IMG/VR virus record: IMGVR_UViG_3300030117_003223
Span: 509 to 64,508 of that record
From: a virus
Taxonomy: Duplodnaviria > Caudoviricetes
DNA: 64,000 nucleotides
Direction: 5' to 3' (one strand)
Below, one piece after another: positions 20,487-55,920 of this stretch; the stretch's first letter is position 1; each line of letters begins with the position of its first letter. Both the position numbers and the translations under genes were made by a program. Under the pieces are notes generated by a model, which was not told where the DNA came from, ran no database searches, and saw only the letters and a list, made by a program, of their open reading frames with translations.

Positions 20487-21511
20487 TACGATGGTTCTCC
20501 CGCGTCACCGAATGGGTTTGATTCACTGAAGTCAAGAATTGTATCGTCCAGTTGCTCAAACAGTTCGTTTTGATTGACCTTATCTGTCGATTGGTCACCT
20601 ACTATATATTCCTCATTTATAAGGTAAGATTCGTCATGTTCATCCGCCGGATTCTCAAGAAGAATAGACTCACCACCTGGCGTTTCATCCTCACCAATGA
20701 GATTGTCACCAGCATCTGTTCCGTCACTATCTGTTCTATCAAGAAGTAATAGACCCCTACCTTCACTCGTTGTATGGTCAATGCTAATATTTTGATTAAT
20801 CGTAGTGGTTGCACTTTGTTCAAGTGTAAACTGATAAGTCAGCGCATCAAGTGATTCTGCATCCTCAATCGCATCAATAGCAGCGATACCTGTGTCAAGA
20901 ACTTCAGAACCATATTCAAAGAGACGACACTGCATTTTATATACAGGATTATTGTCTAACTGATGAAACGGTTCATCATGATCTACAAAATTAATTTCAA
21001 ATAGTTTGCCAAGTGTGGGGTGGTATATCGCATCCCCCTCTTGTGGTCTATCTGAATCAGTTGCATCTGTCTCGTTTATAATATAGAATGTCTCTCCCTC
21101 TAGTTTAGAGGATGAGTCCAAAGTTCCCGACTCTAACAGAATAGAACCAGAAGACGTTGTATCTGTTGCAGTTTCAATCTGAATTTGTTTTGTCTTATCT
21201 TGAAATCTTTTCTTACTAACAACAAACGTTGCCTCGCTTAGATTCTGTAGTCCAAACTGAGTCATCAGTTCTCTTTCACCAGCGTATCCACCTCCAGAGT
21301 TTTCCACATACATCTCAATCTTTGCCTGAGTGTTGAATTTAGACAGAGAGTCTTCACCAAAGAAATTATCCTCTGCGACAAGTGTGCGGTCAAGATAGAA
21401 AACATCATGACCATGAATCTGTATTGCCTCTGCAACTAAATCTGCATAGAGGTTTTGCTCTGATGTAATCGCTGCAACACCACTAGTGTGGAAATGTTTA
21501 TTGACTGCCAT
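20486..21511 (-). CDS. gp14: Neck protein with acidic insertions
   Basis: EQNL..DLVAEAIQIHG, RPQEGD.IY, LFEYGSE, DFSESNPFG. Confidence 0.92.
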   Translation of the reverse strand: MAVNKHFHTSGVAAITSEQNLYADLVAEAIQIHGHDVFYLDRTLVAEDNFFGEDSLSKFNTQAKIEMYVENSGGGYAGERELMTQFGLQNLSEATFVVSKKRFQDKTKQIQIETATDTTSSGSILLESGTLDSSSKLEGETFYIINETDATDSDRPQEGDAIYHPTLGKLFEINFVDHDEPFHQLDNNPVYKMQCRLFEYGSEVLDTGIAAIDAIEDAESLDALTYQFTLEQSATTTINQNISIDHTTSEGRGLLLLDRTDSDGTDAGDNLIGEDETPGGESILLENPADEHDESYLINEEYIVGDQSTDKVNQNELFEQLDDTILDFSESNPFGDAGEPS

Positions 21512-21515
21512 ATGA

Positions 21516-22340: not shown

Positions 22341-22358
22341 AAAACTCCCCTTTATCTA

Positions 22359-22366
22359 TATTTATA
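22359..22366 (-). promoter_or_regulatory. T4-type late promoter for gp13-gp17
   Basis: TATAAATA, GGGGAG RBS downstream. Confidence 0.75.
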
Positions 22367-22387
22367 AGTTTCTGACCGCAAGGTTGT

Positions 22388-22564
22388 CTATTGTCTGTTT
22401 TTCCAAAAATGTGTTCCATAATAATGTTCTTTAGTATAGACGGTTTTTCTATTATATCCTTGATTTGCCTTATAGATTTTTGTGCCATCATCATCGTATT
22501 CCCAAACCCTCTCTTCAGGATTATGACTCTGAATTGGTCCCTCTTTTTCGTCATCCATCATCAT
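22388..22564 (-). CDS. Small hypothetical protein (about 57 aa)
   Basis: Manual translation M(M)MDDEKEGPIQSHNPEERVWEYDDDG...HFWKNRQ with AAGGAG RBS; below track cut-off. Confidence 0.6.
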   Translation of the reverse strand: MMMDDEKEGPIQSHNPEERVWEYDDDGTKIYKANQGYNRKTVYTKEHYYGTHFWKNRQ

Positions 22565-22715: not shown

Positions 22716-22717
22716 AA

Positions 22718-23158: not shown

Positions 23159-23173
23159 GTGACTATATATAAC

Positions 23174-23794
23174 ATGAGAATAGGTATGGTGTCTACATCA
23201 CGGTCAGGATGCACGTATGTTCGTCGTTATATATGTAACAGGTACAATCTTATAGACTCTGGGTCTTGGTTAAAAAATAACTCTTACGATGACATTGAAC
23301 TTGAAGAATGGATAGGTTGGCCTCACGTATTAAAAGTTCTCATTCACTACATCCCACTCCAAGAAAGAAAAGGTGTATTGTGCGACTTCGATAGGATTTG
23401 GTTGTGGAGGGGGGACACAGTTCGACAGTTTCTTAGTCAGATAACCAGACTTAAAACTGGTGTGAACCATGTATATGATGACAAAGACATACCTATCATT
23501 GGTGATAAAACTCTAGTTGCTGAAAGGTCTCAGTTTGATAAATTTATGCTCAGACAAAAAGAGTTCTGGGATTTGTACTATGAGTTAGGGTTTCCAAAAA
23601 ATGACCCGCTGATACGATTTGAGGATTTTGTAGAGAACCCAAAAAAAGTGTGCAAGATGTTAGAGGATTGGTTTTATATGGAGTTCTCATGTGGTCCTGA
23701 GTTAAACGACCAAGCACTACCAAGAAAAATTGACATAGACTATTCAACAAAATACGTTAACTATGAAGAAGTTTTGGAGTGGTTTGGTGAGTGA
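23174..23794 (+). CDS. Sulfotransferase-like protein (Stf0/P-loop type)
   Basis: STSRSGCTY, LWRGDTVRQFLS, IRFEDF, NYEEV. Confidence 0.65.
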   Translation: MRIGMVSTSRSGCTYVRRYICNRYNLIDSGSWLKNNSYDDIELEEWIGWPHVLKVLIHYIPLQERKGVLCDFDRIWLWRGDTVRQFLSQITRLKTGVNHVYDDKDIPIIGDKTLVAERSQFDKFMLRQKEFWDLYYELGFPKNDPLIRFEDFVENPKKVCKMLEDWFYMEFSCGPELNDQALPRKIDIDYSTKYVNYEEVLEWFGE

Positions 23795-24548
23795 CTTTTG
23801 CATATCATGTGTTACACGTTCTGGTTCTTATTGGATTATGGAATACATGTGTAGAGTGTTTGGACTCGTTGAGGGTAATGAATGGTTTGGTAGAAATAAA
23901 GAGGTTGACCTATCAAAACCATTTGAGTTAAAACAAAAAAGAATACCTATAGACTTCAATGTTAATGAAGACTTGATACGTGACAAAGATATGCAAGACC
24001 GATTAACTCACTTGCAAAACTTTCCTGTTCCTTTTTGCATAAAGGCAATGCCGCCACAGTTTACAAATACAGTGGAGTCTGTAAACCTACCTACCCGTGA
24101 CAAAATTAAAATAGCACAAGATATTCTGAGTAACTTTGACCTTATCTACTTCGTGAATGAGGACAAGGTGTCACACTTTTGTTACGAGATAACTGCAAAA
24201 CTTTGTAGCTCTAAAGGATATCCAAGACAAAGAGAATACTCAATATACAATCCAGATGAAAGAGTTGACCCTCCACCAAACTCATTCACTGCAACACAAA
24301 AAGACTTTGATATGTTTGCTACGAGAGACGCATTTACAGATACGGTCATGGATAAGTTTGATTGCCCTGTCGTAACCTATCAGGATTTTGTAGAGGACCA
24401 AGACCGTGAGATGAAAAGGATTGCTGACCATTATAATATCGTGGGTGACTATTCAGATAAATACAAGAAACCTATACTTTTAAATCCAGACTACTCTAAC
24501 ATTTTTACAAACTACGATGAGATATGTAAATGGTTTATGACTTATTAG
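23787..24548 (+). CDS. Sulfotransferase-like paralog
   Basis: CVTRSGSYW, NEWF, VTYQDF, NYDEI; probable GTG start after GGAG. Confidence 0.6.
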   Translation: MSDFCISCVTRSGSYWIMEYMCRVFGLVEGNEWFGRNKEVDLSKPFELKQKRIPIDFNVNEDLIRDKDMQDRLTHLQNFPVPFCIKAMPPQFTNTVESVNLPTRDKIKIAQDILSNFDLIYFVNEDKVSHFCYEITAKLCSSKGYPRQREYSIYNPDERVDPPPNSFTATQKDFDMFATRDAFTDTVMDKFDCPVVTYQDFVEDQDREMKRIADHYNIVGDYSDKYKKPILLNPDYSNIFTNYDEICKWFMTY

Positions 24549-25099
24549 AAATGATGGAAGGTGTTTGGGTTGATGGTGAAACACTTACCAGAGAAAACTA
24601 TGGAGAGAATTTCATCAGTCAACTTGCAGACCTAATATCTGAGGTGCATACAACAGATGTCCCAACAAAAAAAACTATTGATATAGAAGGTCTGGTTAGT
24701 GGACTAAGGTTAGTTGATAATTTTGTATATGATTGTATCATAGACTGGCATACAACCCTCCGACCTAATCTAAATCAATCTGTATTCCTACACGGGGACA
24801 TATGGGCAGAAAACGTGATAGTAGAAGATGGAAATCTACAAGGACTAATTGATTGGGAACACTGTGCGTATGGTGATCCACATTGGGACTTTAGAATGAT
24901 ACGTCGATGGATAGGGTGGGATGGTCTTGACAGACTTCTATTCCTATACAATGCAAGCACAGGACATAATTGCAAAAGGGAGTATGTTGAGATGCTAGAC
25001 AAAATATCACTATGCAACTCTAGACAAATACGGGGATTTAAGAAAACTGTATTTGATGGTTATATTGAGAACTGGCCTATGCCCAACCAATACCCCTAA
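24530..25099 (+). CDS. APH/choline-kinase-family phosphotransferase (C-lobe only)
   Basis: LHGDIWAENV, IDWE, GDPHWDF. Confidence 0.75.
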   Translation: MVYDLLEMMEGVWVDGETLTRENYGENFISQLADLISEVHTTDVPTKKTIDIEGLVSGLRLVDNFVYDCIIDWHTTLRPNLNQSVFLHGDIWAENVIVEDGNLQGLIDWEHCAYGDPHWDFRMIRRWIGWDGLDRLLFLYNASTGHNCKREYVEMLDKISLCNSRQIRGFKKTVFDGYIENWPMPNQYP

Positions 25100-25748: not shown

Positions 25749-26375
25749 TTAAAGTCTTACGATGGAGGCTTCATCACTGAACTGCCAATCATGAGTCCCT
25801 TCGTCGCTGACCACATCATCGCCACTATCCTCTAAAATAATATTGTCACCAGCATCAGAACCATCGGCTGCAGAACGGTCCATGACAATGTAATCGTCTT
25901 CAATCCAACTCCATACCTTATCTTCTCTGTGCTCAATCCTATGTGTCGTGCAATTACCAGCACCCCCGCCAGGTCTACCGTTGGCTATGTTATCGTAATA
26001 CGCTCTATAAGCGTTCACCATTGCAACGTGAACTGAATCTGGATCCCATTCTTCTAATCCCGCATTAGTAAAATGATTAAGTATTGTTAACGTTAAACCA
26101 TCATCACTCTCTGTTTCTATGCCATAAAGTGAACGCCTATCAGTGTTAGATGGGTCACCATATAACTTTCCACCTGTTTCACTCTTTAGATTGTCTCCAG
26201 CGTCGGAGGAACTACCATCTGTTCCATCTAATAACAAATCGTCACCATCCTCTAAGACCATAGTATATTCATCTATAAAATTAGCCTTTAAATAATTGTA
26301 GTGTTCAGTAGACATCTCATGCCAAGGAATATCTGTGTTAGGTCTAGTGAGAGTTATTGTTGTTGTTCGCATCAC
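25749..26375 (-). CDS. Paralog family A protein with two DAGDN acidic insertions
   Basis: TLTRPNTDIPW, SDDGLTLT, plus LLLDGTDGSSSDAGDNL and IVMDRSAADGSDAGDNIILED. Confidence 0.7.
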   Translation of the reverse strand: MMRTTTITLTRPNTDIPWHEMSTEHYNYLKANFIDEYTMVLEDGDDLLLDGTDGSSSDAGDNLKSETGGKLYGDPSNTDRRSLYGIETESDDGLTLTILNHFTNAGLEEWDPDSVHVAMVNAYRAYYDNIANGRPGGGAGNCTTHRIEHREDKVWSWIEDDYIVMDRSAADGSDAGDNIILEDSGDDVVSDEGTHDWQFSDEASIVRL

Positions 26376-28140: not shown

Positions 28141-29423
28141 TGTCTTTCCCACTGCTTTGTAGGTTTAGTTCCTTGAAACCAACACTGTTTTGATTGAGAC
28201 AACACCTCATGTAACTTATAATATGAATCTACCAACTTATCTAAAGTATTGAACGCATGATTTATGTGATACCCAAAAATATTACTTGCATCAAAAAATA
28301 CAACTTTATCTTTTACTGCCTCTTCAATTCTTTCATAATCATCATTTATCAAATCCATCAACCAGTATTCTATATCACATCGGTCATACATCTCTGCTTG
28401 CATTGCACGTAACTCTTCAAACGTGCCCATTGCTTGTATTCTATCATGTGCGGGTGCGTTGCCTATGTTATCTACCATGTTCTTATCTGTTGTGTTTCTT
28501 AGTATGTTTATTTCTTCTAATGACATATTAAGGTCAACCACCATTTTCTTTAAGTCTATATTCTGCTGATTATAATCATAAAAGATTACCCTCTTATCAA
28601 AGTTCAAACGGTTACAGTTCGCCTCCGCACTGTATCCAGCAGTCGGTGAAAATATTACGTCAAAATCTACTATAGGAATCTCACGTAAAGACTCTGTATT
28701 GAAGATATAGTATGACTCTGTAATTCGTGTCATGAAACGACTGAAGTAGTAATCGTCAGTTGTTCTAGAAACCTTATGAAGATTTTTCCAAGTTTCATCT
28801 TGGTCACGAAAGTAAGAAAATGATTTACGTGATCTCTCTTGCTTCGTAAAATTAATTATGCGAGGTAACCCACTAATATCAATCCAAGGTGGTGTATAGT
28901 CATCGTGAAAATTATCTGGTGACCTTTTAAACTTAGTCCATCTTTGATTCATATCGGGACAATTATTTTCTCTCCACTTATCAAGATTTAGATTTATATG
29001 TTGATAATGCAGAAACGCTGGTTCATATGGACGTGCAATAATGTGAGCTTTACAAAACTCATTACTTCGCACAAAGTCAAAGAAATCTGTGATAGGAGTA
29101 ATCTGTTGTCCCATATGATGACCGACCATATCAAATACCATACCCACTGATACAATCATCGCATGAGTATGTTTTGATTTCAAGAGATGCTCATGTATCT
29201 CACTACGATAACAGAACTGAATATCATGACCTACTGACCCACCAGTAGGACCACCTGATAACATTAATGCAAGTGTTTGTGCTTGTTTCTCTACACTCAA
29301 AGTCCATGTCTTTCCTTGAGGAAAGAACATAAGAAAAAGATAATCTTTAAACTCATCTTTTACTTTAACACCTAAAGATTCTTTTTTCCATAAATTAACA
29401 AACTCATCAAAATCTTTTACCAT
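28128..29423 (-). CDS. Hypothetical protein, possible C-terminal Rossmann/methyltransferase-like domain
   Basis: VIFSPTAG...VIFYDYN...MDLI...FFDASNIF pattern. Confidence 0.5.
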   Translation of the reverse strand: MVKDFDEFVNLWKKESLGVKVKDEFKDYLFLMFFPQGKTWTLSVEKQAQTLALMLSGGPTGGSVGHDIQFCYRSEIHEHLLKSKHTHAMIVSVGMVFDMVGHHMGQQITPITDFFDFVRSNEFCKAHIIARPYEPAFLHYQHINLNLDKWRENNCPDMNQRWTKFKRSPDNFHDDYTPPWIDISGLPRIINFTKQERSRKSFSYFRDQDETWKNLHKVSRTTDDYYFSRFMTRITESYYIFNTESLREIPIVDFDVIFSPTAGYSAEANCNRLNFDKRVIFYDYNQQNIDLKKMVVDLNMSLEEINILRNTTDKNMVDNIGNAPAHDRIQAMGTFEELRAMQAEMYDRCDIEYWLMDLINDDYERIEEAVKDKVVFFDASNIFGYHINHAFNTLDKLVDSYYKLHEVLSQSKQCWFQGTKPTKQWERQWIS

Positions 29424-30403
29424 ATTGTTTCCCTGTAACTATTTGATTTCTCGAAGCCTGGTTTGTATGAACACATATTGGTACATTGAGATAAACAATT
29501 AGAAGGACTCTCCCACGAGAGTTGAAGTGCCTCGTAGAATATATCTTCCATAATTTCTTTTAGTGACCTATCCAACAAGTTATTACTTTTATCATAATAA
29601 TAGTCATCATAAAACTGTTGCTCTCCCAAACTAGATTTTTGTTCTGGTAAATAACAACACGGCCACACTCTACCAGTGTGACTAACATATATAGAATTGT
29701 ACTCTTGAAACTTACAAACTATTTCACCAACGCTTACATTTAGTTTACTATGACTAGATGGTTCAATCTTATACTCTTCACCTTTGTAGGTAAACTCTGT
29801 TGTGTCTGACCTTTGTGAGTATAACAAAGTGAAACTATTGAACCCTAGTTTTTTTGCTGTCTCTTGTGCTCTTGATATCTCATGTTCATTATGTTTAAAC
29901 ACAATCATTCTCCACTCAGCGTTCCCCCCACCTTCTATAAATGATGTTGCATTCTCAATAATCTTATCATAACTTGCGTTTATACGATAGTGACTAAGCG
30001 TGTCTACACCATCAATACAAAAAACAACTTTATTATTTTTTAACTTGCCAAACTCTCGCCACCACTTTTTAGTTCTAATCGAACCGTTTGTGCTAGTGAG
30101 AACTCTTGAACCACTATAAACAATAAACTCACAAATGTCAAGATAATCTTTGCTTAAAACATTCTCTGATATTTGACCATAAAATTTAACAAGTCCCACA
30201 TTACCTATATTGTTGTAACAGGTGACAAACTGGTTAAGAGACATCTCAGAAGTATTCAGAGATTCGGTTGGATTGCCATCACCACTTTTATTCCACTGTA
30301 AAACACCATCCTTAATTTCATTCCTCGCACATTGTGGACACATGAGATTACAAATGTTATTCAACTCCCAGTTTATATCAACAGGTTTACTGAGGTCGAT
30401 CAT
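29417..30403 (-). CDS. Radical SAM/SPASM protein
   Basis: CNLMCPQC, TNGS, FCIDG, C...GRVWPCC...CLSQC..MC. Confidence 0.88.
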   Translation of the reverse strand: MIDLSKPVDINWELNNICNLMCPQCARNEIKDGVLQWNKSGDGNPTESLNTSEMSLNQFVTCYNNIGNVGLVKFYGQISENVLSKDYLDICEFIVYSGSRVLTSTNGSIRTKKWWREFGKLKNNKVVFCIDGVDTLSHYRINASYDKIIENATSFIEGGGNAEWRMIVFKHNEHEISRAQETAKKLGFNSFTLLYSQRSDTTEFTYKGEEYKIEPSSHSKLNVSVGEIVCKFQEYNSIYVSHTGRVWPCCYLPEQKSSLGEQQFYDDYYYDKSNNLLDRSLKEIMEDIFYEALQLSWESPSNCLSQCTNMCSYKPGFEKSNSYRETIW

Positions 30404-31100
30404 CTATTTCTTTTAACACATCTTTGCCAAACTGTTTGACAAGAGACTTTCTCATAAGTTCTTCTCGCTCTTTATTAAAACCACCGTGCATAATAAAGTG
30501 ATACCTATTCTCATCAGAACTATTCAATGCCTCATGTTCAACACCATTATCAAACCAGAACCCAGTGCAGTTTTCAAAAGGCAACTCCTCTTTTGTGTCT
30601 GAACGTCTCAGGTAACAGTTGTCTGGTTGATAGAAAGCAAGGTTAATCGCACCAGCGATATTTCTCACCCTACCCTCAAGAACTCTTTGTTTACTGGCAT
30701 CGTTGTGTGCTTCAATACCCGCGCCTGGTTCTAATAACATGAAACGCAAACGTCGATATGAACTATGAGGGAAGTCCTCTAACCACCTCTTTGTCTCTGG
30801 GGCGACCTCTGCAATCTCTGTCCATCCCCACTCAACATCATCCTCACTTAATCCATGACCATACGGGTTCTTAGTATGAAACCATCCCATGTCTAAATCT
30901 TTGCCTTTCTCAACGAAACTATGAATGGATGCAGACTTCCATCCACCGTGACCCCCATCACCAAAACGATGTTCTACAAAGAAACCCTCATCGTATACTG
31001 CCTGTGCCTCTTTGATACACTCCTCTGGTATCTCTATATCCATCTTTAGATACCAAACATCGTTATCTCTGCACCAATCTACAATATTTTTATGACTCAT
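30387..31100 (-). CDS. Asp/Asn beta-hydroxylase-like oxygenase
   Basis: RLRFMLLEPGAGIEAHND, HEALNSSDENRYHFIMHG. Confidence 0.82.
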   Translation of the reverse strand: MSHKNIVDWCRDNDVWYLKMDIEIPEECIKEAQAVYDEGFFVEHRFGDGGHGGWKSASIHSFVEKGKDLDMGWFHTKNPYGHGLSEDDVEWGWTEIAEVAPETKRWLEDFPHSSYRRLRFMLLEPGAGIEAHNDASKQRVLEGRVRNIAGAINLAFYQPDNCYLRRSDTKEELPFENCTGFWFDNGVEHEALNSSDENRYHFIMHGGFNKEREELMRKSLVKQFGKDVLKEIDDRPQ

Positions 31101-33969: not shown

Positions 33970-34285
33970 ATTTGTCTACTGTAAAATTTTCAGAACAATA
34001 TTTTTTACAAACCCTTGGTGCATCTTCTGGTCTTTCCTGTAACATTGTATAAAAATCTGTCCACTCTTTAGATTGTGTAATTTCTTTTATGTTCTGTACA
34101 TTTGATATTTTAAATTTGTCTTGATAAAATATATCTTGCACCTCGTCTCTCAAGTTCCATCCCGAATCTATCCAACAACAAGGAAGAAGAAATCCTTCTG
34201 CTGAGTGACCTAAACACTGTGACATCTGCAACGCATCATTTGTATTATCCACTGGTATACACTTTGGTTTAAGCACAGAACTCAT
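33956..34285 (-). CDS. Stand-alone SPASM/Twitch-like domain
   Basis: KPKC...GFLLPCCW...EWTDFY...CKKYC; start MSSVLK at 34285. Confidence 0.7.
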   Translation of the reverse strand: MSSVLKPKCIPVDNTNDALQMSQCLGHSAEGFLLPCCWIDSGWNLRDEVQDIFYQDKFKISNVQNIKEITQSKEWTDFYTMLQERPEDAPRVCKKYCSENFTVDKYGEK

Positions 34286-34916
34286 CTCTTGGTTTATATT
34301 TGTACATAACATCACCCTCATTATCCCACCTACCGGATTTTGATAGTCTAAACTTTATGCCCTCATCACTCGCCATTTGTCTTGCTTGTTCTATGTGGTC
34401 CTGATTATAATTAAATATGATATATTGCCAAACAATATTACATCCCTTATTTGCCCCTAATTTCATCATCTCATATAAATGAACACCGTCTTGATTTATT
34501 CTGTACTTATGACTCTCCTCTGGTAAACCATCTAAACCAAAAATCCACGTTGTGTCAAACCCACTAACCTCATACGCTTCTTCATAGAAAGGTTCTTTCC
34601 TATGTGATGCTGCTGTGTGAACGTCTAATTTGTGTGAGTAGGCCATCTTTACAAATTTTATAAAATGTTTATGCGCTAACGGGTCAGACTGCTGACCGCA
34701 AAACTCTATGTAAGAAAATGTGTCAAGGATTTTTTGAAAATCCTCTATTGACATTTCTTTATATTTGTGTTTAATACGAGAATAAAAATTGCCCTTGTTT
34801 CGCATACAGGCAGGGCACTGCAACGGACATTTGTTTGTGATATCTAAGTTAATAGGTTTATCATAAAAACTTCTGCCGGGCCACCAAGGATATTCCCGAA
34901 GAGTAGGTATAATCAT
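34269..34916 (-). CDS. Radical SAM protein (paralog of 4604..5155)
   Basis: CPLQCPAC, CGQQSDP, FGLDGLPEESHKYR.NQDG. Confidence 0.88.
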   Translation of the reverse strand: MIIPTLREYPWWPGRSFYDKPINLDITNKCPLQCPACMRNKGNFYSRIKHKYKEMSIEDFQKILDTFSYIEFCGQQSDPLAHKHFIKFVKMAYSHKLDVHTAASHRKEPFYEEAYEVSGFDTTWIFGLDGLPEESHKYRINQDGVHLYEMMKLGANKGCNIVWQYIIFNYNQDHIEQARQMASDEGIKFRLSKSGRWDNEGDVMYKYKPRDEFCA

Positions 34917-36429: not shown

Positions 36430-39400
36430 TCAAAGTTTACCACCTACACCGTATATCGCTTTAAGGACATTTCCAGCAGCGTCCTTTATTAGTAATTGAC
36501 TATTTGTAAATGATGTATAATATTCGTATAACATGTTATCACCAGCATTTGTTCCACTACCATCCGTTCCACCATCTTCTATTATGATGTTATCTCCCGC
36601 GTTAGCTGTACCGTCCGTACTGTTTAATACGATAAAGTCACCACCAAACTCTGCCTTACCTGACTCAGCACTCAACGCACCTCTAGATGACAGGGACATT
36701 TTTGCTGCGGCTGAGGCAGCAGCAGATTCAGATACACCAGTTGTAAATACTAGTTTTGTTGCATTAGCAGAGGCAGTAAATGCACCCTCTGCGATTGCAT
36801 GAATACCAGCAGCGACCACAGCGGCATCTGTTCCATCAGAGTCACCTGCAGCCATCTCAATAGATGCAATGACATCATCAGCAACAATTGCATCTTCTTC
36901 TGATTTCAACTGTAAAACTATTGGTCTATCATCTGTGCCGTTTACTGTATTCGTTATTGTTAGTCCAACATCATGGACATGTGTTAGAGTTATCTCTGAG
37001 TTAGTACCAAATGAAATGAGAGATGCATCTGATAAAAGTTTAATATCATCACCAGCAACAATATCCAGAGCAACAGATAAACCACCATCAGTCTGCAACG
37101 CACCATCAGTTGTGCTTGTTGCCTCTGTCGTATCGTCTGTAATCAATCTACCACTAGCAGTGATTGCAGTTGCACCAAGTGTTCCCGCAACAGTTAAAGC
37201 AGCGCTACCTAAAGTTAACAAATCAGTGTCAGCAGCACCACCTATCGTTCCACCACTTTTAATTACAAGATCGTCCTTGACTGTAAGAAGTCCAGCCGAG
37301 GAAATTGTAAGTGCGTCATTTGTCGAAGCAACACCAATCGTACCACCATCCTTAATCATAAGGTCATCAGCAATCGTTAATAGACCAGCAGAACTTAACG
37401 TCATTTTAGCAGTTGCACTCGCTGCAGCAGTTTCGGACACACCTGTAGTAAAGACAAGTTTAGTTGCGTTAGCATCAGCAGCAAAAGTTCCCTCTGCGAT
37501 TGCATGAATACCAGCGGCGACCACGGCAGCGTCTGTACCATCAGAGTCACCAGCAGCAAGTTCAATAGATGCGATAACATCATCTGCAACAATCGCATCT
37601 TCCTCAGATTTTAACTGAAGTATAACTGGTTTACCATCAGAGCCGTTTATAGTGTTTGTAACTGTAAGTCCAACATCATGCACATGAGTAACAGTGATTT
37701 CATCATTAGCACCAAACGCTATAGTGGCACCGTCATGTTGAAGTTCTAAGTCTTGAGTTAATGTAACGTCTCCATCAGAACCAATCGCAATAGCATCAGT
37801 ATCAGATGCAGAGCCAATTGTTCCCGCATCACTAACTATCAACGATGCCGCTGTAACTCCAGCATTGGTTATGGTGAGGTTACCAGAACTAGCACCAGTA
37901 AACGTTCCTGTTCCTAGAACAATCCTATCTTCACTTTCATCCCAACCAATAAACACGTTTGCATCATCACCACGTTCAATGACGATACCAGCATCACCAG
38001 AAGCACTTCCTGACCTACCAGTTCCTAATTCAATCAACTGGTCTTCGATAGTTGTATTGGTTGCAGAGTTTGTGACGGTTGCACCGTTAACTGTTAAACT
38101 CTGAGAAATTGTTACGTTACCACTACTGTCAATCGCAATAGCGTCTGTATCAGAAGCAGAACCAATTGTCCCTGCATCTGGAATAATAATATTGCCACCA
38201 GTTGTAACACCAGCGTTAAACGTTGCAAGACCAGCAGCACTCATGTCAAATGTCAATGCGGTAATTTCAGAACTACCATCAACACCTTTGAAAATCATGT
38301 CCTTATCATTGACTAGTGATTTAAATGTTAAATTATCTGAGTCTAAACTTACGTGTCCAACATTGGTAGAACCGTCTTTGAATATGACCTCATCACCACC
38401 AACGTCAAGAACAATATCTCCAGCAACGTCAAGTGTAAGGTCACCCGAGCTGAGGTCAATCTCTGTACCGTCAATGGTGATGTTATCTATTGCAACACCA
38501 CCGTCAAATGTAGCAGATGTTCCTGACACCGCTTGTGTGAATGAAACAACACCGTTTGATGCAATTGAGATAGCATCTGTATCAGAGGCAGAACCAATCG
38601 TACCAGAATCCTTAATAACAATATCATCTGCAAAAGTTACAACACCATCAGAGGCAATTGTTATAGCACCAGCAACTCCAGCACTACCTATTGTTCCATC
38701 ATTCTTGAGTACAATATCATCTTTAAAAGTAACAATACCAGCACTACTGATTGTCATCGCATCATTAGCAGAGGCAACACCAATCGTACCACCATCCTTA
38801 ATCACAAAGTCGTCTGCGATAGTCAGTAGACCAGCAGAACTCAGTGTCATCTTAGCGGTAGCACTTGCAGCAGCAGTTTCCGATACACCCGTAGTAAAGA
38901 CTAACTTAGTCGCATTAGCACTCGCAGAGAAAGTTCCCTCTGCAATCGCGTGAATACCAGCAGCAACAGTTGCACCATCAGTGCCATCAGAGTCACCCGC
39001 TGCTAACTCTATGGATGCAATAACATCATCCGCAACTATTGCGTCTTCCTCAGATTTTAGTTGTAATACCACTGGTCTATCATCGGTGCCGTTTATGGTA
39101 TTGGTTATTGTCAACCCAGTATCATGAACGTGTTTAAGAGTTATCTCTGAGTTTGCACCAAAATTAATTTGAGCACCATCGGTGCTAAATGGTAAGTTGC
39201 CACTAATAGTTTTGTTGGTAAGTGTATCCGTCGTTGATGCACCTATTAACGTAGTAGATGTTACTGGTAGTGTGATTGTAACATTACCAGAATAATCTGC
39301 GTGAGCAGAAGATTGTAGCTGTGCATAGTGAGCGTTTGAACTCTCACAATAAAATTTAATATTAGAAACTGAACCCGCATTTTTAAGGTCAATAGCACCA

Positions 39401-46000: not shown

Positions 46001-46384
46001 AATAAACAGAATTGGTTGTTCAGTTGTAGATGCTGCTTGAAATCCAATAACCTCTGCTTGAACACCAGTGGTAGCGCCTGTAATCGTAACTGGTGTTGTT
46101 GCGTTATAATACTTTGATGGGTCCACTGTTTCTCCACTAAACGTGGATGTAAGTTTTACAGAATAATAATCTTTTATGTTAGACGCGCCAGGCACAACCA
46201 TTGCACCCTCTTTAAAAACATGACCTCCATGTTGTTCAATCTGATTTTGTAACTGACTTTGTAGTTGGGTAAGTTCTCTTGCCTGAATGGCAAACCCTGG
46301 CCGAAATAATGTGCGAACAAAATTATCGCTCTCATCAAAATCGTCGTAGTAAGGAGCAGCGTTAAGATTAGTTTTTTGAGCCAT
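40040..46384 (-). CDS. Large virion structural protein (VrlC/DUF4815-like)
   Basis: NLNAAPYYDDFD, LFRPG..IQARELTQLQ, RRTFDESGNY, RFKSGFIVDPF, DPLAQTF, PRIKDLR. Confidence 0.85.
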   Translation of the reverse strand: MAQKTNLNAAPYYDDFDESDNFVRTLFRPGFAIQARELTQLQSQLQNQIEQHGGHVFKEGAMVVPGASNIKDYYSVKLTSTFSGETVDPSKYYNATTPVTITGATTGVQAEVIGFQAASTTEQPILFINYTRAGTDNSTAVFADGENISADVAIQHTTTTYSANVASSTSFTATSTDVKSATGPASRTGSAYFVRPGVFYVRGFFVSVTDQVITLDPYDRDFSGFVGFDITETLVTPESDTSLLDNAQGSANFAAKGAHRLKITLTLAKKTTASNSNFIQLAQIKNGAVVAQGRETEYSILSEEFARRTFDESGNYTVKPFQFKVQECVTVNENTGRFTLGATTNDGGTASTDLLSLNVSPGRAYVNGYELEKNAPTIKDINKARDFETKNGDISVFDTGNFALITNVYGTPDISEVASEATPFKELQFYDTLTSSRGTANGTLIGVGRARSMQFSAGVAGSSSSNNASVYKLYLFDLRPFTILTLSGTPSPLLTSVHADGVQVKGVTSGATGFVFGEGTSGTNVNLTNVVGSFTVGEKVTTSDSAETDDILEDSGTTDLTISKIASKSFGDFRQVFMNDPTNADEDFTADLVTEAETQVDFVLLEDSASRSEGSIVLEEDNSTVVSLERVESAKLKDGNKNIALFKPSQKVIKTFLTATNNGVSDTSFTIRRQFVGTTDASGVVSFTAGTGETFNGFAETDYTLSVLDIGSGSTHADGDIVSISGKLSGTGTNQITITDSLFNGSKVKLIATTTKTAVTQKSKTVNLMKQVKVVAGDTDAYGTRPTDKEISLGRADAFKLVAVFDSEASGTDASAPTLTLGTITGTFTRGEKITGSSSGATGRIIDITSPMSYVLTSASDFTTSDTITGESSSASAAVSAVGDGSVVITSDFELDTGQRDNFYDISRIVRKGSSPTPQGRLLIVYDYMEHGAGDLMTVDSYTDVANQMDYEDIPSYTATKIDPDDPEPVGLFPLADTFDFRPRVADITGASSTLSVVDEITGNSFDFTSRVFSGTGSSYSNFGKPGSNIQSDFEYYLPKRASIFIDDRGNIVVSEGASSEQPQLPTPVDNAMKLADLLLPAFTFKPQDVSLTRERTQRFTMQDIGKIERRVTNVERVTTLSLLEKDAQSFETTDANGLNRFKSGFIVDPFRGHDIGDVKHPDYRNSIDMTAGELRPVHKTKGIDLIEQATTDTARTSAGYQKTGDLLTLPYTEETITENPFATTVERVTPFLTASWFGEVTLDPDQDSWFETEVAPELVINVEGNFDAVVEANRNQLGTVWNSWQDNWAGRRFMVREEFIGDGGDVNFRMRRMQTGTRRGTGTRTFVEEDIERESQGFRTISRVAIPVVRARNIRFDATGVKPFQRMYVFFDGVDVNAFVTPDSDSTTDATPVTGSPIIVKSNSQCGGIFAIPDPKISGNPQFNTGTVQFKLTSSSTNAAQPDSRAQANYIADGILETRQETIIATRNGRLATESVTTSQALTRAVPLEWQVAMDPLAQTFIIADEDQQFNQDLNGSDTDVGRFATSIDLFFSAKHETLPVTVEIRNVVNGYPGPKLLPFSRVTKLPADVNISADGKTATKFTFPSPVYLQSMAEYCFVVSSNTPDYIMWISDLGEEDSDGNLVSEQPHIGVLFKGHNNRTWAPAPTQDAKFTLRGAKFDTTAAGSVTLTNDTLPSLTLGKNPLVMTNSNTELKVNHFDHHMYDTTNNVTISGVKSGAETTLNGSIGSASDTITLTDGTNFDDTAGKFSRNASNVYFIKIGDEVISYTSISGNTITGATRAVEGTAASHASGATVELYMLHKVPFTEINKTHTDVANIGTDYYTVTLSTTPDVESGGDSTFGGSVVTATENAQYDVSSTVIGTLITPQTNIISKIRHTTATSVSGSQDSFSQTSLTNAETIPLNDNYYYDKCYMIASGINETEEMEGSKSLIMPLTLSSTSSQVSPVIDVKRMTFFAVANRINQIDSSSDVYPTSIYDPMTAPEGDDHDAIYLTKSAALETPATSLRVLFDANRESTADIKVLFKILRTDDASDFDELDFQFFNNDGSEDVTVAPSLGIDQFNEYQFTAGVTDDGIGTPLDEFISFQIKIVMRATNSARPPRIKDLRVLALAT

Positions 46385-46385
46385 A

Positions 46386-47888
46386 TTAGAATTCCACTAT
46401 AATTTTGATATCTTCTGTTTGGTCCGTTGCCCGCGATATGGGTGACCTGTTTTCGTTGTATATGATGTTACCACTATCTGGTTCCAGTTCTGGATTTGCA
46501 TAACCATTTGTAAATGTAATTGTTTGTCCGTTTGAAAGAGTGACCGCACTATCTGCATCAGCATCAGGTGTTCCTGACGCAGAGGAGTCTGCACCCGACA
46601 CCGCGTTTGCACCACTGAACGCTATGTAAGCACCAGATGCCGCGACAGTACCAAAGTCACCATAACGTTCCTGTTGGTAATAGAGAATACGCAAACTTGA
46701 ATCCCACTCTACAACTTTACCAATCGCACCTGTTGACGTTTGTGTAATCTTTTCATCTGGCGTAAACGTTCCACTAAGTCCACTGCTCGCAAGTTTGAGT
46801 GCATACGTCTGACGAATAGTTGCATCTGTTGCAACCGTTGATGTTCCAAAGTTTGTTGGGTCAACTGCAATTGCAATGTTACGGAAATCGTTTCCTGTAA
46901 GAAGGTCATCACGCTCTGCACCAATAAACAATGTGTTCATCATAACATAGTGACCACCAAGTTCTTCAACCGCATCATCACCGTGTCCTTCTTTCGGACT
47001 AATGACAACACGAATGGAACCACCAGAACCACCCATTGCAGAGGCAGACGACAGTGAAGCATCAGAGAATGTAAACCCGCTTCCAAGATTAACTGTTCCA
47101 AATGTGTATCCAGAACCACCTGAGTTGATTGTCGTATCAGTTCCAGCAGTAAGACCAAAGGACTGTATAGCGTTTGATGCAACAGTAATTCTTATAACCG
47201 CACCAGAGGACGTTCCCGCACTTGCACCATCACCATAAACTGCTGCATAGTAAGTCCCGTTAGTGTATCCAGACCCACCTGTAACAACCAGAGATTCAAT
47301 CTTACCATCAACGGCGGCGGTACTCACAGTGCTGTCTGTAGACACAGGCATGAAGTCAGTTGTCAAAAACTTTGTCTGTTCAGATGCAGTTATTTTATAC
47401 ATGTACTTGAGAATGTATCCACCAGAGGCAAACGGGGAGGTAGACTCTGAACTTGGTTCTGAACCAGAATATGCGGTCCCACCATTATTGTCGAGAACTT
47501 TGTATACACGATTCTCTGAAGTCCTAAAGAAAAAGGTTGAGTCATAAAGGTTTGTTGCGCCGGACGTTGTTGGGTTAGATGAACTAATCGTGTCATCATA
47601 CATATCAAACGTTGTTGAGTTAGCCCAATCTCTACGAGGAAGGACATGTGATATGTCAGTCGAAGCAATGTTTTTTCCCGCGATAGTTTGGTCCCAAATA
47701 TAAAACTCACTAGATACATCATCAACAGGAGTTGGTGGGGATGAGTCGGTTCCACCACTTGTCGCTGATGTAAATGGAGTTGCCTTACCAATTAACATAT
47801 AGTACGTTGATTTTGCTGCCTCAGAGAATGACTCGAAAAACTGAGTAGCATTATGTAATCTAAATTTTTCTGTTATGATTGCGGTCAT
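46386..47888 (-). CDS. gp8: Baseplate wedge subunit
   Basis: MTAIITEKFR, VYKVLDN, KYMY, ENRSPISRA.DQTEDIKIIVEF. Confidence 0.88.
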   Translation of the reverse strand: MTAIITEKFRLHNATQFFESFSEAAKSTYYMLIGKATPFTSATSGGTDSSPPTPVDDVSSEFYIWDQTIAGKNIASTDISHVLPRRDWANSTTFDMYDDTISSSNPTTSGATNLYDSTFFFRTSENRVYKVLDNNGGTAYSGSEPSSESTSPFASGGYILKYMYKITASEQTKFLTTDFMPVSTDSTVSTAAVDGKIESLVVTGGSGYTNGTYYAAVYGDGASAGTSSGAVIRITVASNAIQSFGLTAGTDTTINSGGSGYTFGTVNLGSGFTFSDASLSSASAMGGSGGSIRVVISPKEGHGDDAVEELGGHYVMMNTLFIGAERDDLLTGNDFRNIAIAVDPTNFGTSTVATDATIRQTYALKLASSGLSGTFTPDEKITQTSTGAIGKVVEWDSSLRILYYQQERYGDFGTVAASGAYIAFSGANAVSGADSSASGTPDADADSAVTLSNGQTITFTNGYANPELEPDSGNIIYNENRSPISRATDQTEDIKIIVEF

Positions 47889-51224: not shown

Positions 51225-51227
51225 TTA

Positions 51228-51881: not shown

Positions 51882-51900
51882 TTTATTTTCCTTGTTACTT

Positions 51901-51908
51901 TATTTATA
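51901..51908 (-). promoter_or_regulatory. T4-type late promoter
   Basis: TATAAATA. Confidence 0.72.
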
Positions 51909-51912
51909 ATAG

Positions 51913-54900
51913 TTACTGTGGTATAGTCATATCAAATGTGTGTTCTGTAGTATCAAATCCTTCAGCGGTTGAATCAAATCCTTGGAAGAGTCCAGCAAAA
52001 TAAATACTCTCAAGAAATGCTTGCTCTGTGCCTTCTTCTAAAAGAATATTATTACCACCAATATTGACACCGCTCAAGTCTACTGTGTCAGTTTCAAACT
52101 GTATCTGAATATCTCCACCATCTAAAGCATCCTCACCTTTAACTCTACCTATCCTACTCACGTAAATTTCAGAGGGTCTATTAAATCTTGGAACTCTTGT
52201 AGAACCAGTGAAGTTTTCCACAGGCATAGAACCTATAGATGTGTTATCTTCAAGTGCAATCGTTTGAGTTTCCACTGATAACTTACCGCCACGTAGTAAC
52301 GCGGTTGCATCTTCTAGTAAAAATTCATCTCCATGAGTTGTAGCAACTGTGGTTTCATCCTCTTGCATAATCGAACCAGTGTCACTTTGTTCGTCCAAAA
52401 TATTTACTATCGAATCATCGTCAGCAATGTTAAGTCCATCAGCGATAGATAACTCACTTATGCTAGGTGGTCCAGCCACCTCATCCTCAATCTTTAAATT
52501 AAATCCAGTTTCCAATAATAGATTTTCGCCGTCCTCTTGAACCACAGTATCATTTCTAAAAACAAGATAATCACTAAATGAAATGCCCTCACCAAGATTA
52601 TGGTCATCAGTAGTTTCCAAAAGTATTCTATCACCAGCATCTTGATCGGAAACTAGGTCAGAGGTGTTATCAAGAAGTATATCACCAACCATATTTTGAA
52701 TACCAAGCGCTAATCCTGCCTCAACTGCAAGAGTATCACCTAAGAAACTTTCTTGTCTCACATTACTAAGGAACGTTAGTCCATTTGCACTATCTCCAAT
52801 ACGACTTGGATTTGATTGAACAATCGCAGTGATTGTCCTGACTACCCTTACATCATATTCACCTGTGAGAGTTCCATCCTCTAAACTGAGTTTTACTCCA
52901 TCCAACTCAGTCTCAGTGCGAATGACACCAATACCAGTTTCAGTTTCTAACTCAACATGTTCCGCTGCAAATCCAAATGCTTTAGGTCTACGTTTATTTT
53001 CTTCAGCAAATAAAGTCTCAAATGTGGACGCGAGTATCGGACTAAACGTATTCGTATCTGCAACATACTCATCACCTAGAGATGCGCCTGTAGGTGTGGA
53101 GATACCCGCATAGATTCTTGTTGCCGTCTTAACTTTACTAAAGACGGCAAACCCAGATGGATGAACTGCTTTTTTAAGCTCGTCAATATATGAACCCGCA
53201 CCTGATGCAGTTTGCACCTCATATGAGAACTGTTGATAATAGAAGGAATCCTGTATGCGAATAAGGTCTTCACCTATTAGACTTTCAATACTAGTGCCAT
53301 AACTACCAAGTTTATCAGCAGTAAGTCCAAGACCCACAGTTGTTTTTGCAATGTTTGCATTTACAATTGTGCCACTAGCAGTCGCAGTTGAGATAGTTGA
53401 ATTTACAAAATCTATATTTTCATTTTCTAAAATTACATTGTCGTTTTCATCAAGTCCAGATGAGTTAGTTCCATCGAAAACAATTTCATCAAAGTTTTCA
53501 ACAGCAAATACTGGGTGACCACTATTATCTTCAAGAACGATGACAGGTTCCGCACCATTATCAGTGCCATTCGCATCTGTTCCATTTAATACTATTGTTT
53601 TACCTTCACTTGTAACGAGATTCTCACCTGATTCAATATCATCAATAATAATATTATCACCAACACCAAATTTAACACTAGGGTCAGAACTCTCTTGCAC
53701 AAACTTAATATAACGTGTATTGATATCAAGCTGGTGGTCTAGGAGTAAAGTTATTTCTTCTTCATTAACAACGTAATCACCGTCCTCAGTGAGTATGCTA
53801 CCAGATGGACCTATACCACCAAAAGTTCCATCACCCGACTCCAGAAGAATTTGAGAAGCACGATCTTCTGCAAACTCCATAATCAGTTCGCCTCCGCCTG
53901 TCGCATCTTCCAGAGTGATGTAATCAGTCATGGCATCAAAAGCATCTAAGACAATATTGTTACCATCAGCATCAACAAGATTGTCACCAAAACTAATATC
54001 ACCATCTAGTATTAGACTTGAACCCACAAATAATAATTGCTCTGGAGCTGAGGCGTCCTCCAATCGTATTTGCTCTTCGTCATTGTCCTCACTACCAATC
54101 CCAACTTTATCTTCGATAGAAGTTTCAAGAATTTGAGTTCCACTCTCAAATGAACGAACCGTTCCATCATGAGTTGTTAGAGCAGAGCCAGCAGAGAAAG
54201 TCCCTGTTATATCTTTGATAACGAAGTTTGCACGAAACTCTGCTGTTGGTGCTTCGTCATAATCCATCCCAAAGTTAGTTACCTCTACGCTCTCAACTGC
54301 ACCTATCGTCTGTGTGGTTGCTAGAAGTTTTGTACCTGTTCCAAATTTGGAGGTAACTGTAACCGTAGGAAGTTTTGAGTAACCAATTCCACCATCCTGT
54401 AAAAATACTTTTGTTATATCACCCGAACCAGATTCTAATATAAATGAATCATCGTCTCTTTTAATTACATCAATTCTAATTTCGCCAATCGCTTCCTGAC
54501 ATTGAATTCTATCACCAAGAACTGCCTCTGTGTTTATACCGTCTGTGTATGACGCAGCATTACCAGACTCAAAGAAAAGTTCTCCACCATCCTCTTGGAC
54601 CAAACTAAGAAGTTCAACCTCTCTGTCTGTTCCCTCTTCTTGAACTAATGTGTCATTGTCCTCTGTTATGATTGAACCATGAATAACACTAACAAAACCA
54701 GTTGCAGCATCAACAAGACCTGCCTCATCAGAGTTGTCAGTGAATGTTAGAACATCCCCAATCTCATAGTTTGTTCCACCGTCATCAACAGATACTCCAC
54801 TAACTGAACCTCGACCTATCTTTTCAACCTTAGCTTCAACATCCCCACTGCCTATTGAAGTAGATGTATCTATATCAATAGCATCAGCAACATTATGAAG

Positions 54901-55920
54901 AATACCTCCATTAGTGACTGACATAGTAGAGACAATCTGTCTGACAGTAAAAGTAAACTCAACATCCTGTACAGATGATACTACACTTATAATCTCATTT
55001 CTCTCAAAAGTGCCATCAATTTGATTTAAATCTAACTCATCAATGATTGACCCATCTGATGGGTCAACAAACTGAGCAACCCCTTGAACTAACGCTGTTG
55101 CACCAGAAGTTTGTCCTGTAATTTTTTGACCTACTATTTCACTTGAGGTTGGAGAACCGATTGGTGTGACACGCATGATGGTAGGTTTATCCCAATCACC
55201 GTCAGACACACGAAGCATTCTAGTGTTAGGATAGAAAATCTCAGCATCCTCATCCAAAAGAATACGAAGGAATAGTTTTGCACCCTCTTGTGTTCCCTTT
55301 CTACGATATAGTTCTGCGATATTCTTCGTAAGATTTCTTTTATCTAATCCTGTAGCAAGACTGCTAGGGATTGCATTCATAAATGATTTACGAAACTGCT
55401 CAATGAAATCAAAGATAGTATTGTCAATATCAGCATATGCAAGAAGTTGTTGAATATTTTGTACAGGACTTGCCCGATACCTCGTCACTGTTCCAGTTGC
55501 ACTAGAGGTTCCGCCGGTGATTGTTTCTCCTGTGATAAACTGTTGTTGTGAAGTGATGAACAATCTGGGTGTTGTTGTGTTTCCAAGATCATCAACAAGA
55601 ACTTCAGCAGTTGCTTTAGAGGTTCCACCAGTGATTGTCTCTCCCACAACAAACTTACCAGTTGTCCCTGTCCCACTCTCCAACACAATGGGATTGCTTT
55701 CCTCATCAATTACAAGAGTGGGTGTGTTGACTTCTAAAAGAAGATTATCAATCGTCGCAGAAACTTGCAGCTCACCAGACTCAAGATATTTGTAGTAACT
55801 TTGAAGGAAAGACGAAAAGATAGGATGGTCATCAGCTACAAAATCAGGTAACTGACCATCTATCTGAGTGCTGACCTTATTAATCAGGTCTGGCGAATGT
55901 CTTCCATCAAAAGGTGCCAT
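51913..55920 (-). CDS. gp7: Baseplate wedge initiator with expanded acidic repeats
   Basis: QLPDFV, FLQSYYKYLE, LYRRKGT, RIQDSFYYQQFSYE, VHPSGF; follows gp6. Confidence 0.8.
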   Translation of the reverse strand: MAPFDGRHSPDLINKVSTQIDGQLPDFVADDHPIFSSFLQSYYKYLESGELQVSATIDNLLLEVNTPTLVIDEESNPIVLESGTGTTGKFVVGETITGGTSKATAEVLVDDLGNTTTPRLFITSQQQFITGETITGGTSSATGTVTRYRASPVQNIQQLLAYADIDNTIFDFIEQFRKSFMNAIPSSLATGLDKRNLTKNIAELYRRKGTQEGAKLFLRILLDEDAEIFYPNTRMLRVSDGDWDKPTIMRVTPIGSPTSSEIVGQKITGQTSGATALVQGVAQFVDPSDGSIIDELDLNQIDGTFERNEIISVVSSVQDVEFTFTVRQIVSTMSVTNGGILHNVADAIDIDTSTSIGSGDVEAKVEKIGRGSVSGVSVDDGGTNYEIGDVLTFTDNSDEAGLVDAATGFVSVIHGSIITEDNDTLVQEEGTDREVELLSLVQEDGGELFFESGNAASYTDGINTEAVLGDRIQCQEAIGEIRIDVIKRDDDSFILESGSGDITKVFLQDGGIGYSKLPTVTVTSKFGTGTKLLATTQTIGAVESVEVTNFGMDYDEAPTAEFRANFVIKDITGTFSAGSALTTHDGTVRSFESGTQILETSIEDKVGIGSEDNDEEQIRLEDASAPEQLLFVGSSLILDGDISFGDNLVDADGNNIVLDAFDAMTDYITLEDATGGGELIMEFAEDRASQILLESGDGTFGGIGPSGSILTEDGDYVVNEEEITLLLDHQLDINTRYIKFVQESSDPSVKFGVGDNIIIDDIESGENLVTSEGKTIVLNGTDANGTDNGAEPVIVLEDNSGHPVFAVENFDEIVFDGTNSSGLDENDNVILENENIDFVNSTISTATASGTIVNANIAKTTVGLGLTADKLGSYGTSIESLIGEDLIRIQDSFYYQQFSYEVQTASGAGSYIDELKKAVHPSGFAVFSKVKTATRIYAGISTPTGASLGDEYVADTNTFSPILASTFETLFAEENKRRPKAFGFAAEHVELETETGIGVIRTETELDGVKLSLEDGTLTGEYDVRVVRTITAIVQSNPSRIGDSANGLTFLSNVRQESFLGDTLAVEAGLALGIQNMVGDILLDNTSDLVSDQDAGDRILLETTDDHNLGEGISFSDYLVFRNDTVVQEDGENLLLETGFNLKIEDEVAGPPSISELSIADGLNIADDDSIVNILDEQSDTGSIMQEDETTVATTHGDEFLLEDATALLRGGKLSVETQTIALEDNTSIGSMPVENFTGSTRVPRFNRPSEIYVSRIGRVKGEDALDGGDIQIQFETDTVDLSGVNIGGNNILLEEGTEQAFLESIYFAGLFQGFDSTAEGFDTTEHTFDMTIPQ

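Follow-up and report, generated by a model that had tools for sequence, protein, structure and literature searches.

A short acidic peptide repeat recurs in unrelated tail proteins of an uncultured marine phage, and we hold with high confidence that it is a genuine portable module of virion proteins. The stretch of DNA analysed here (the window; 64,000 nucleotides, positions 509 to 64,508 of IMG/VR record IMGVR_UViG_3300030117_003223) covers almost all of a 64.5-kb viral contig with an estimated completeness of 35%. It is a pelagimyophage-like contig from an uncultured marine T4-like phage. A sequence-only reading of the window had pointed to an acidic 'DAGDN' motif in several virion proteins and proposed a portable tag spread over neck, baseplate and fibres. 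We find the repeat in the neck protein gp14, in a large protein at the position of gp7, in a long fibre and in a small open reading frame (ORF), ORF 25749-26375; some relatives have it in their tail sheath as well, and also in a protein homologous to that of ORF 35407-36414. The carriers are not homologous to one another: gp14 belongs to PF11649, the 1,335-residue gp7-position protein matches baseplate-wedge families, and the fibre and ORF 25749-26375 match no family. Our preferred explanation, to which we give a probability of roughly 0.45, is that of a portable virion-protein repeat whose units form a strand and a cation-stabilised turn.

Recurrence in the window

A six-frame scan of the window for [DN]AGD[NR] returned exactly 6 matches, all in minus-strand coding frames and at the places named by the sequence-only reading. 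They lie at residue 266 of gp14, residues 58 and 174 of ORF 25749-26375, residues 1072 and 1090 of the fibre and residue 1094 of the gp7-position protein. To set this count against chance, the 75 non-overlapping ORFs of the window (20,973 amino acids) were shuffled over their whole length or within blocks of 30 residues. The mean number of matches was 0.083 for whole ORFs and 0.081 for blocks, with a maximum of 2, and 0 of 2000 trials reached 6 in either design.

We also scanned the window with an independent profile made from 172 database copies only, with the window copies excluded. Seven domains scored 14.8-37.7 bits and one scored 9.8 bits, whereas the top score in 100 local shuffles of all 75 ORFs was 6.9 bits. 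Two variants in the gp7-position protein that had been listed with the motif, IVLNGTDANGTDNG (14.8 bits) and DEIVFDGTNSSGLDENDNVILEN (19.3 bits), exceed this shuffle maximum and, judged by their scores, are real but weak copies. The third copy in that protein, ILLDNTSDLVSDQDAGDRILLE, has a lengthened loop and scores 34.8 bits with a profile of the window copies and 9.8 bits with the database profile. A looser copy had also been proposed in the DUF4815/VrlC protein (around 44520-44580). We reject it, as it scores -3.6 bits, is absent from the matches of at least 5 bits and has only a generic hhhLED strand (h, hydrophobic) in common with the repeat.

A profile of the six window copies was searched against 1.84 billion representative proteins. 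At E<=1e-3 this yielded 174 proteins, of which 38 also passed E<=1e-10, and a single protein could hold as many as 12 copies. The carriers have an acidic composition with much D, G, T and S, but chance recurrence in acidic, low-complexity sequence is refuted by the shuffling controls and by the number of database carriers, and we consider it vanishingly improbable.

Consensus and database carriers

Across 172 unique copies the consensus is [DG]-x-[IL]-h-L-[DN]-G-T-D-[SGA]-S-[SG]-[TS]-[DN]-A-G-D-x-[IL]-h-h-E-[DT]. Its best-kept residues are, in order, L (81%), D/N (91%), G (76%), T (91%), D (84%), D/N (96%), A (85%), G (93%) and E (99%), which as a profile is a position-specific pattern and not mere acidity. 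Tight tandem arrays have a period of 16-17 residues, and this period implies a unit of one strand plus one turn. Read from the alignment, the true unit is about 16-18 residues long: a short hydrophobic strand that ends in an acidic residue or N (hhL[DN] or hhhE), followed by an oxygen-rich, glycine-punctuated turn (GTD-S-S-S-T-[DN]-AGD-x). By the same pattern, the 'DAGDN motif' is one register of this repeat, and the motif as first described comprises two strands around one turn.

To classify the carriers, we masked the repeat in the best 150 of the 174 database proteins and compared the remainder with the window proteins. Seventy-two resemble tail proteins of the window: 54 are homologues of the gp7-position protein, with 1-12 copies each, 11 are homologues of the fibre and 4 of the tail sheath, and one each resembles ORF 25749-26375, ORF 35407-36414 and VrlC. 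The other 78, many of them short fragments, match nothing in the window; 77 have no Pfam match and one matches Gly_rich_2. Thirteen of these were inspected. Five have an M[PS]YLG N-terminus in common, followed directly by a repeat pair in three (P0110, P0145 and P0150), and on this basis we take such carriers to be fibre-like; others among the thirteen resemble, by eye, the C-terminal part of the gp7-position protein. No enzyme or other non-virion domain was found in any carrier examined, which agrees with confinement of the repeat to virion-type proteins.

Among cultured phages, the pelagimyophage HTVC008M encodes four copies; its gp7-position protein contains all of them, and the rest of its 147 kb contains none. 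With HTVC008M as the positive control, the same profile search found no copy in the complete genomes of Melnitz, Mosig and four cyanomyophages. A tblastn search of the database array protein P0003 against cultured phages gave no match, possibly owing to the low-complexity filter; it was the profile that detected the HTVC008M copies.

Gain, loss and spread among relatives

The repeat is gained, lost and multiplied among close relatives, with loop expansion and cassette insertion as the routes. For gp14 we compared the nearest 120 of 6771 homologues (73-100% identical). A short form, LLLDETDS------DNIIGED, is present in 112 of these, and the full motif, with six extra residues (DGTDAG), in only 8, which are the closest (82-100% identical). 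The window copy, LLLLDRTDSDGTDAGDNLIGED, lies in a C-terminal extension past the T4-like core: T4 gp14 chains 9mkb and 9lu4 match residues 21-218 of the window protein only (E=3e-19), and the repeat falls outside this match. The proposal that copies sit in insertions outside conserved cores thus holds for the DGTDAG loop of gp14, but does not extend to the strands that flank it, which are conserved. The gp14 of the related contig G009 (L092 4666-5805, minus strand; 379 residues, 69% identical) has three copies in its C-terminal arm. We note that another gp14 homologue, P0263 (76% identical), has the NCBI source label 'Candidatus Poseidoniales archaeon' metagenome-assembled genome; it is probably a phage contig binned with an archaeon.

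In sheath homologues from other contigs (P0106, P0124, P0135 and P0141), one or two copies form a cassette flanked by 'NWGTD' and 'TS.Y.AV'. The C-terminal part of the sheath, which is well conserved and can be aligned with solved sheaths, starts shortly after this point. The window sheath has no cassette at this insertion point, around residue 340. Similarly, P0113, a homologue of ORF 35407-36414, has 2-3 copies and the window protein has none.

In the fibre, the tandem pair FIVLNSTDGTANAGDNIIIEDGGTDGSGTNAGDNMLYE lies near the C-terminus and is followed by a conserved tail of 30 residues. The pair and these last 30 residues form a module, which is likewise found at the end of 11 fibre-like proteins in the database and of the fibres encoded by related contigs G001 and G002. 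The last 100 residues and the N-terminal 84 residues of the fibre are 80-85% identical to those of G001 and G002, and the middle is 42-60% identical. Two small database proteins, P0041 (102 residues) and P0084 (106 residues), have C-terminal 26 residues identical to those of the window fibre (36430-36510), with the repeat just before them. P0084 begins with MPYLGRAP, the N-terminus common to the fibre-like carriers, and may be a minimal fibre or a contig-edge fragment. The translation of the window fibre also has, by eye, three long internal segment copies from about residues 218, 700 and 935, each starting FG(A/T)N(S/D)EIT(L/V)(K/T)HVHD and each containing AAGDSDGTDA, which is reminiscent of the repeat turn.

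We examined codon use to see at which level the copies are conserved. Among the six window copies, third codon positions agree in only 1/7 to 8/12 of identical residues, and synonymous codons are shared no more often than codon bias gives. Recent gene conversion between copies is ruled out by these synonymous sites. By this comparison, what is conserved in the repeat is the peptide and not the DNA, and the copies are kept by selection on the peptide rather than by recent duplication or slippage.

Genomic setting

The window has no DNA-level match to cultured phages. At the protein level, the named phages nearest to it are Methylophilales phage Melnitz, whose gp14 is 43% identical, and two Pelagibacter myophages, Mosig and HTVC008M. 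The carriers and their neighbours are given in Table 1. A host recognition cluster of pelagimyophages has been described between VrlC and gp14 (Zaragoza-Solas et al. 2020, PMC7029224), and the variable island of the window, with its position exactly as described and its mix of fibres and enzymes, is this cluster. In that paper VrlC is taken to stand in for gp7, whereas the protein that carries most of the repeat here is a separate, large one adjoining gp6.

Table 1 Repeat copies and genes discussed in the text. Positions are those of the window; scores are in bits.
Feature	Position	Strand	Details
gp14 copy LLLLDRTDSDGTDAGDNLIGED	20687..20752	-	residues 254-275; 36.8 bits
ORF 25749-26375, copy 1, LLLDGTDGSSSDAGDNLKSE	26178..26237	-	residues 47-66; 36.1 bits
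ORF 25749-26375, copy 2, IVMDRSAADGSDAGDNIILED	25827..25889	-	residues 163-183; 37.7 bits
Fibre tandem pair FIVLNSTDGTANAGDNIIIEDGGTDGSGTNAGDNMLYE	36523..36636	-	residues 1061-1098; 30.0 + 28.6 bits
gp7-position copy ILLDNTSDLVSDQDAGDRILLE	52615..52680	-	residues 1081-1102; lengthened loop
gp7-position weak variant IVLNGTDANGTDNG	53554..53595	-	residues 776-789; 14.8 bits
gp7-position weak variant DEIVFDGTNSSGLDENDNVILEN	53422..53490	-	residues 811-833; 19.3 bits
Tail sheath	12789-14792	-	T4-type structural module
Neck gp14	20486-21511	-	PF11649, E=4e-29
Variable island	between VrlC/DUF4815 gene (40040-46384) and gp14 (20486-21511)		fibres mixed with enzymes
APH-like kinase	24530-25099	+	island
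Radical-SAM/SPASM protein	29417-30403		island; directly abuts the Asp/Asn beta-hydroxylase gene
PF05118 Asp/Asn hydroxylase	30387-31100		island
Second radical-SAM protein	34269-34916		island; 3 kb from the first pair
Fibre	36430-39816	-	1128 residues; no family match
DUF4815/VrlC protein	40040-46384	-	2114 residues; T4-type structural module
gp8	46386-47888	-	T4-type structural module
gp7-position protein	51913-55920	-	1335 residues; matches PHROG baseplate-wedge families; adjoins gp6
gp6	55924-57828	-	T4-type structural module

ORF 25749-26375 encodes 208 residues and belongs to no family. A single homologue (97% identical) was found among 5.8 billion clusters, none in cultured phages or IMG/VR, and the gene is absent from the related contigs G001, G002 and G009. 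The ESM Atlas held no model and no usable match for it. The ORF has a GTG start with an ATG immediately after, and the Atlas record begins at that ATG.

Inside the otherwise minus-strand region, a trio of plus-strand genes (23159-23794, 23763-24548 and 24530-25099, the last an APH-like phosphotransferase) was also found together in contig G009, at 36-54% identity. The PHROG family of the gp7-position baseplate protein, phrog_3465, carries the label 'head closure Hc2', and residues 499-599 of the gp7-position protein match positions 228-313 of phrog_460, the gp14 family. The label probably stems from a strand-turn region common to the two profiles, and looks like an annotation trap.

A proposed strand and cation-stabilised turn

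We propose that each unit of the repeat would form a beta-strand and an acidic turn, in which a divalent cation taken up from seawater would be bound by the oxygens of Asp, Asn, Ser and Thr. A single copy would be a hairpin, and copies in tandem would build a small ribbon or solenoid, lending stiffness or length to those parts of the tail that are exposed at the surface; at the ends of fibres the repeat would act as a conserved joint. This reading draws on the sequence pattern, its periodicity, the flanking hydrophobic triplets and the marine setting, and the cation-stabilised mechanism taken on its own is tentative.

Three observations argue for strands and turns. The first is the 16-17-residue period. 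The second is that gp14 of Melnitz aligns strand for strand with the C-terminal region of window gp14, a short turn replacing TDSDGTDAGDN. The third is that the gp7-position protein contains 17 pentapeptides of the form hhh[ED] plus a polar residue, against 3.5 expected, and 0 of 300 shuffles reached 17. From this count, the gp7-position protein is built largely of degenerate strand units of this kind, and the canonical repeat is the best conserved among their forms. Neither the gp7-position protein nor the fibre has a similar entry in the PDB. Exposure of the gp14 repeat is suggested by T4, in which, according to PMC12929629, gp14 has its C-terminal region wrapped around the gp15 ring on the outer side; fibres, too, are exposed parts. 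The proposed joint at the fibre ends follows from the contrast between the conserved ends and the diverged middle of the fibre.

Several results weigh against this proposal. For the 376-residue array P0003 (seven-to-ten copies; alignment of 13 sequences), AlphaFold2 gave a mean predicted local distance difference test (pLDDT) score of 38.5 and essentially no secondary structure. For window gp14 (59 sequences), residues 11-220 were modelled at a pLDDT of roughly 40-79, and residues 220-341, which include the repeat, were left at 34-41 with no strands; a disordered segment with a linear motif would look alike in such predictions. No known cation-binding family in Pfam, NCBIfam or the PDB matches the repeat, the spacings of EF-hand and RTX sites are incompatible with the consensus, and cation binding is deduced from composition alone. 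One carrier, ORF 25749-26375, is a protein without known virion membership.

Comparison with known repeats and modules

We found no prior description of the repeat, as the sequence-only reading had supposed. Searches of 7 window proteins, of 10 carriers and of another 78 carriers gave no Pfam match that covers the repeat, NCBIfam gave none, and a search of the PDB with the repeat profile returned only a de novo TIM barrel (E=8.9). The phrog_3465 profile includes the repeat without defining it. No description was found in full-text string searches of the literature or in the main text of PMC7029224; in that text the word 'motif' is absent and the passages on 'repeat' concern terminal repeats and collagen repeats. 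The repeat is therefore unnamed in the libraries searched: a short, portable repeat of phage tail proteins.

Its second half recalls the Asp-box of bacterial neuraminidases (BNR repeat), a beta-hairpin with the pattern S-x-D-x-G-x-T-W. The stretch [SG]-[TS]-[DN]-A-G-D-x-[IL] fits S-x-D-x-G plus a hydrophobic residue, and this core is seen at positions 15-19 (S 52%/G 37%; T/S; D 51%/N 45%; A 85%; G 93%). Both are short turns between two strands in unrelated protein contexts, although the hairpin of our repeat is itself inferred. The T-W of the Asp-box has no counterpart: position 21 is N in 36%, E in 9% and K in 8% of copies, with T outside the six commonest residues, and position 22 is I (52%) or L (34%) and never W. 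The repeat also has an extra conserved first half, L-[DN]-G-T-D-S-S, and Pfam BNR gave no match at E<=0.1 in the 10 carriers scanned.

Calcium-bound beta-rolls and solenoids offer a second likeness. RTX beta-rolls consist of tandem nonapeptides, GGxGxDxUx, in segments that are unfolded without Ca2+, and the Marinomonas antifreeze repeat is a Ca2+-bound beta-solenoid of 19-residue units; repeats of this type belong to exposed extracellular proteins that need millimolar Ca2+. As in these, the tandem unit is 16-19 residues long, with one short strand and a turn rich in Gly, Asp, Asn and Thr. Unlike RTX, the repeat has single glycines at positions 10 and 19, no GGxGxD and no Pfam match. It further differs from beta-rolls and solenoids in having three consecutive hydrophobic residues per unit in place of alternating ones, in matching no such family or PDB entry, and in that AlphaFold produced no solenoid for the array. 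An EF-hand loop has the spacing D-x-[DNS]-x-[DNS]-G-x-[ILV]-x-x-x-E; whichever of the three D/N residues of the consensus is taken as the start, the required G (position 6), hydrophobic residue (position 8) and E (position 12) do not all fall into place, and no EF-hand family was among the Pfam matches of window proteins and carriers.

Phage virion proteins are also known to carry promiscuous accessory modules, such as Ig-like domains of about 90 residues and collagen-like repeats. The present repeat resembles these in that it sits on non-homologous structural proteins, is exposed, and is gained and lost between close relatives. It differs from Ig-like domains in being about 20 residues long and non-autonomous, without a known fold or ligand. 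Collagen repeats and carbohydrate-binding domains are mentioned for pelagimyophage structural proteins in PMC7029224. Our repeat stands closest in behaviour to the promiscuous virion modules and to the cation-bound beta-roll repeats, as a member of neither.

Possible alternatives: docking, modification or a spacer

A first alternative is that the repeat is a docking or joint element, with copies on different tail proteins bound to one another or to a shared partner, in which cations may form the bridge. Such an element would serve to hang accessory fibres on the tail, or to keep fibres close to the neck and sheath. Its plausibility comes from the location of the repeat at the fibre ends and the strong conservation of those ends, which far exceeds that of the middle. 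The repeat adjoins the conserved N-terminal anchor of the fibre-like proteins P0110, P0145 and P0150, stands just ahead of the conserved C-terminal 30 residues in other fibres, and is found in the mini-proteins of 102 and 106 residues that end with the 26 residues of the window fibre. The carriers, neck, baseplate, fibre and, in relatives, sheath, would be the surfaces touched by a folded-back fibre. Against this, the confinement of the repeat to one protein in HTVC008M is unlike a docking code over many proteins, and up to 12 copies per protein look like a structural array rather than a tag. We consider docking unlikely.

A second alternative makes the repeat a linear acceptor motif in a flexible segment that is modified by a tail-adjacent enzyme. 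The two D/N positions would be targets of the Asp/Asn beta-hydroxylase, or else the Thr/Ser run would be the substrate of a kinase or glycosyltransferase. The sequence-only reading had suggested such a link to the enzymes of the island, which encodes a PF05118 hydroxylase, two radical-SAM proteins and an APH-like kinase. We keep modification as a rival because two positions strictly alternate between D and N (58/33% and 51/45%), a pattern that would be a curious fit to an Asp/Asn-specific enzyme. The conserved T (91%) and the lack of structure in predictions of the repeat region would also suit an acceptor, and the hydroxylase is 81-91% identical across the three motif-bearing relatives examined.

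The substrate context argues otherwise. Known Asp/Asn beta-hydroxylases act on disulfide-bonded EGF-like domains with the pattern C-x-[DN]-x4-[FY]-x-C, but at none of the 29 profile positions does cysteine rank with the commonest residues, and the six window copies have no cysteine at all. Nor is the repeat an N-glycosylation sequon: N-x-T requires N ahead of G-T, and only 33% of copies have it there, against 58% with D. Conserved hydrophobic triplets on both sides suit a folded element better than a bare acceptor.

The distribution of the enzymes points the same way. PF05118 was found in 17 of 23 related contigs, in 9 of 12 with a motif match and in 8 of 11 without, although these contigs are fragments (5-28% complete) and the test is correspondingly weak. 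In Mosig, two PF05118 genes pass the cut-off but the motif is missing; in HTVC008M the motif is present, and the PF05118 match, at only 17 bits, falls short of the cut-off; Melnitz has neither. The radical-SAM/SPASM gene is absent from G001 and G002, both of which bear the motif. Asp/Asn beta-hydroxylase is, moreover, listed among the core genes of all pelagimyophages in PMC7029224. A specific pairing of the repeat with the island hydroxylase is thus not supported, as the enzyme is clade-wide and also present in phages without the motif, and modification in general seems to us improbable.

A bolder reading allows for either role. The repeat could be a shared recognition code of about 20 residues on the tail surface, through which an enzyme (the core Asp/Asn beta-hydroxylase of the clade or another enzyme of the cluster) covalently marks proteins of the neck, sheath, baseplate and fibres, or else a reversible 'Velcro' in which cations link the copies at fibre ends with those of neck, sheath and baseplate, for docking or stowing fibres. 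No phage system with a shared tail recognition code of this sort was described in the sources searched. We regard this idea as quite unlikely; if it were true, one portable peptide would organise the outer tail of an abundant clade of uncultured marine phages.

Lastly, the repeat might be a flexible, highly charged spacer without a specific fold or partner, whose solubility and harmlessness let it be tolerated and multiplied in exposed loops, or which stops tail surfaces from adhering to particles. Low-confidence structure predictions, a high net negative charge and rapid gain and loss at surface positions would all be expected of a spacer. However, position-specific conservation is too strict for one (A 85%, G 93%, T 91%, E 99%), differences at synonymous sites speak for peptide selection and not recent slippage, and the fibre module has stayed 80-85% identical while the rest of the fibre diverged to 42-60%. 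We therefore think a mere spacer very unlikely.

Significance

The phages that carry the repeat are very abundant, uncultured, marine and T4-like, with thousands of gp14 homologues in ocean metagenomes, and a cultured carrier is available in pelagimyophage HTVC008M. The repeat, absent from Pfam and NCBIfam, provides a sequence signature by which tail and fibre proteins can be recognised among the many marine virome genes that lack annotation. Were the repeat to serve as a code for modification or docking, it would assign a substrate or a role to tail-adjacent enzymes that lack known targets. A module that moves among fibres, baseplate, sheath and neck, with a copy number that varies between near-identical phages, offers a handle both on the diversification of these tails in the host recognition region and on the use of seawater cations by marine virions.

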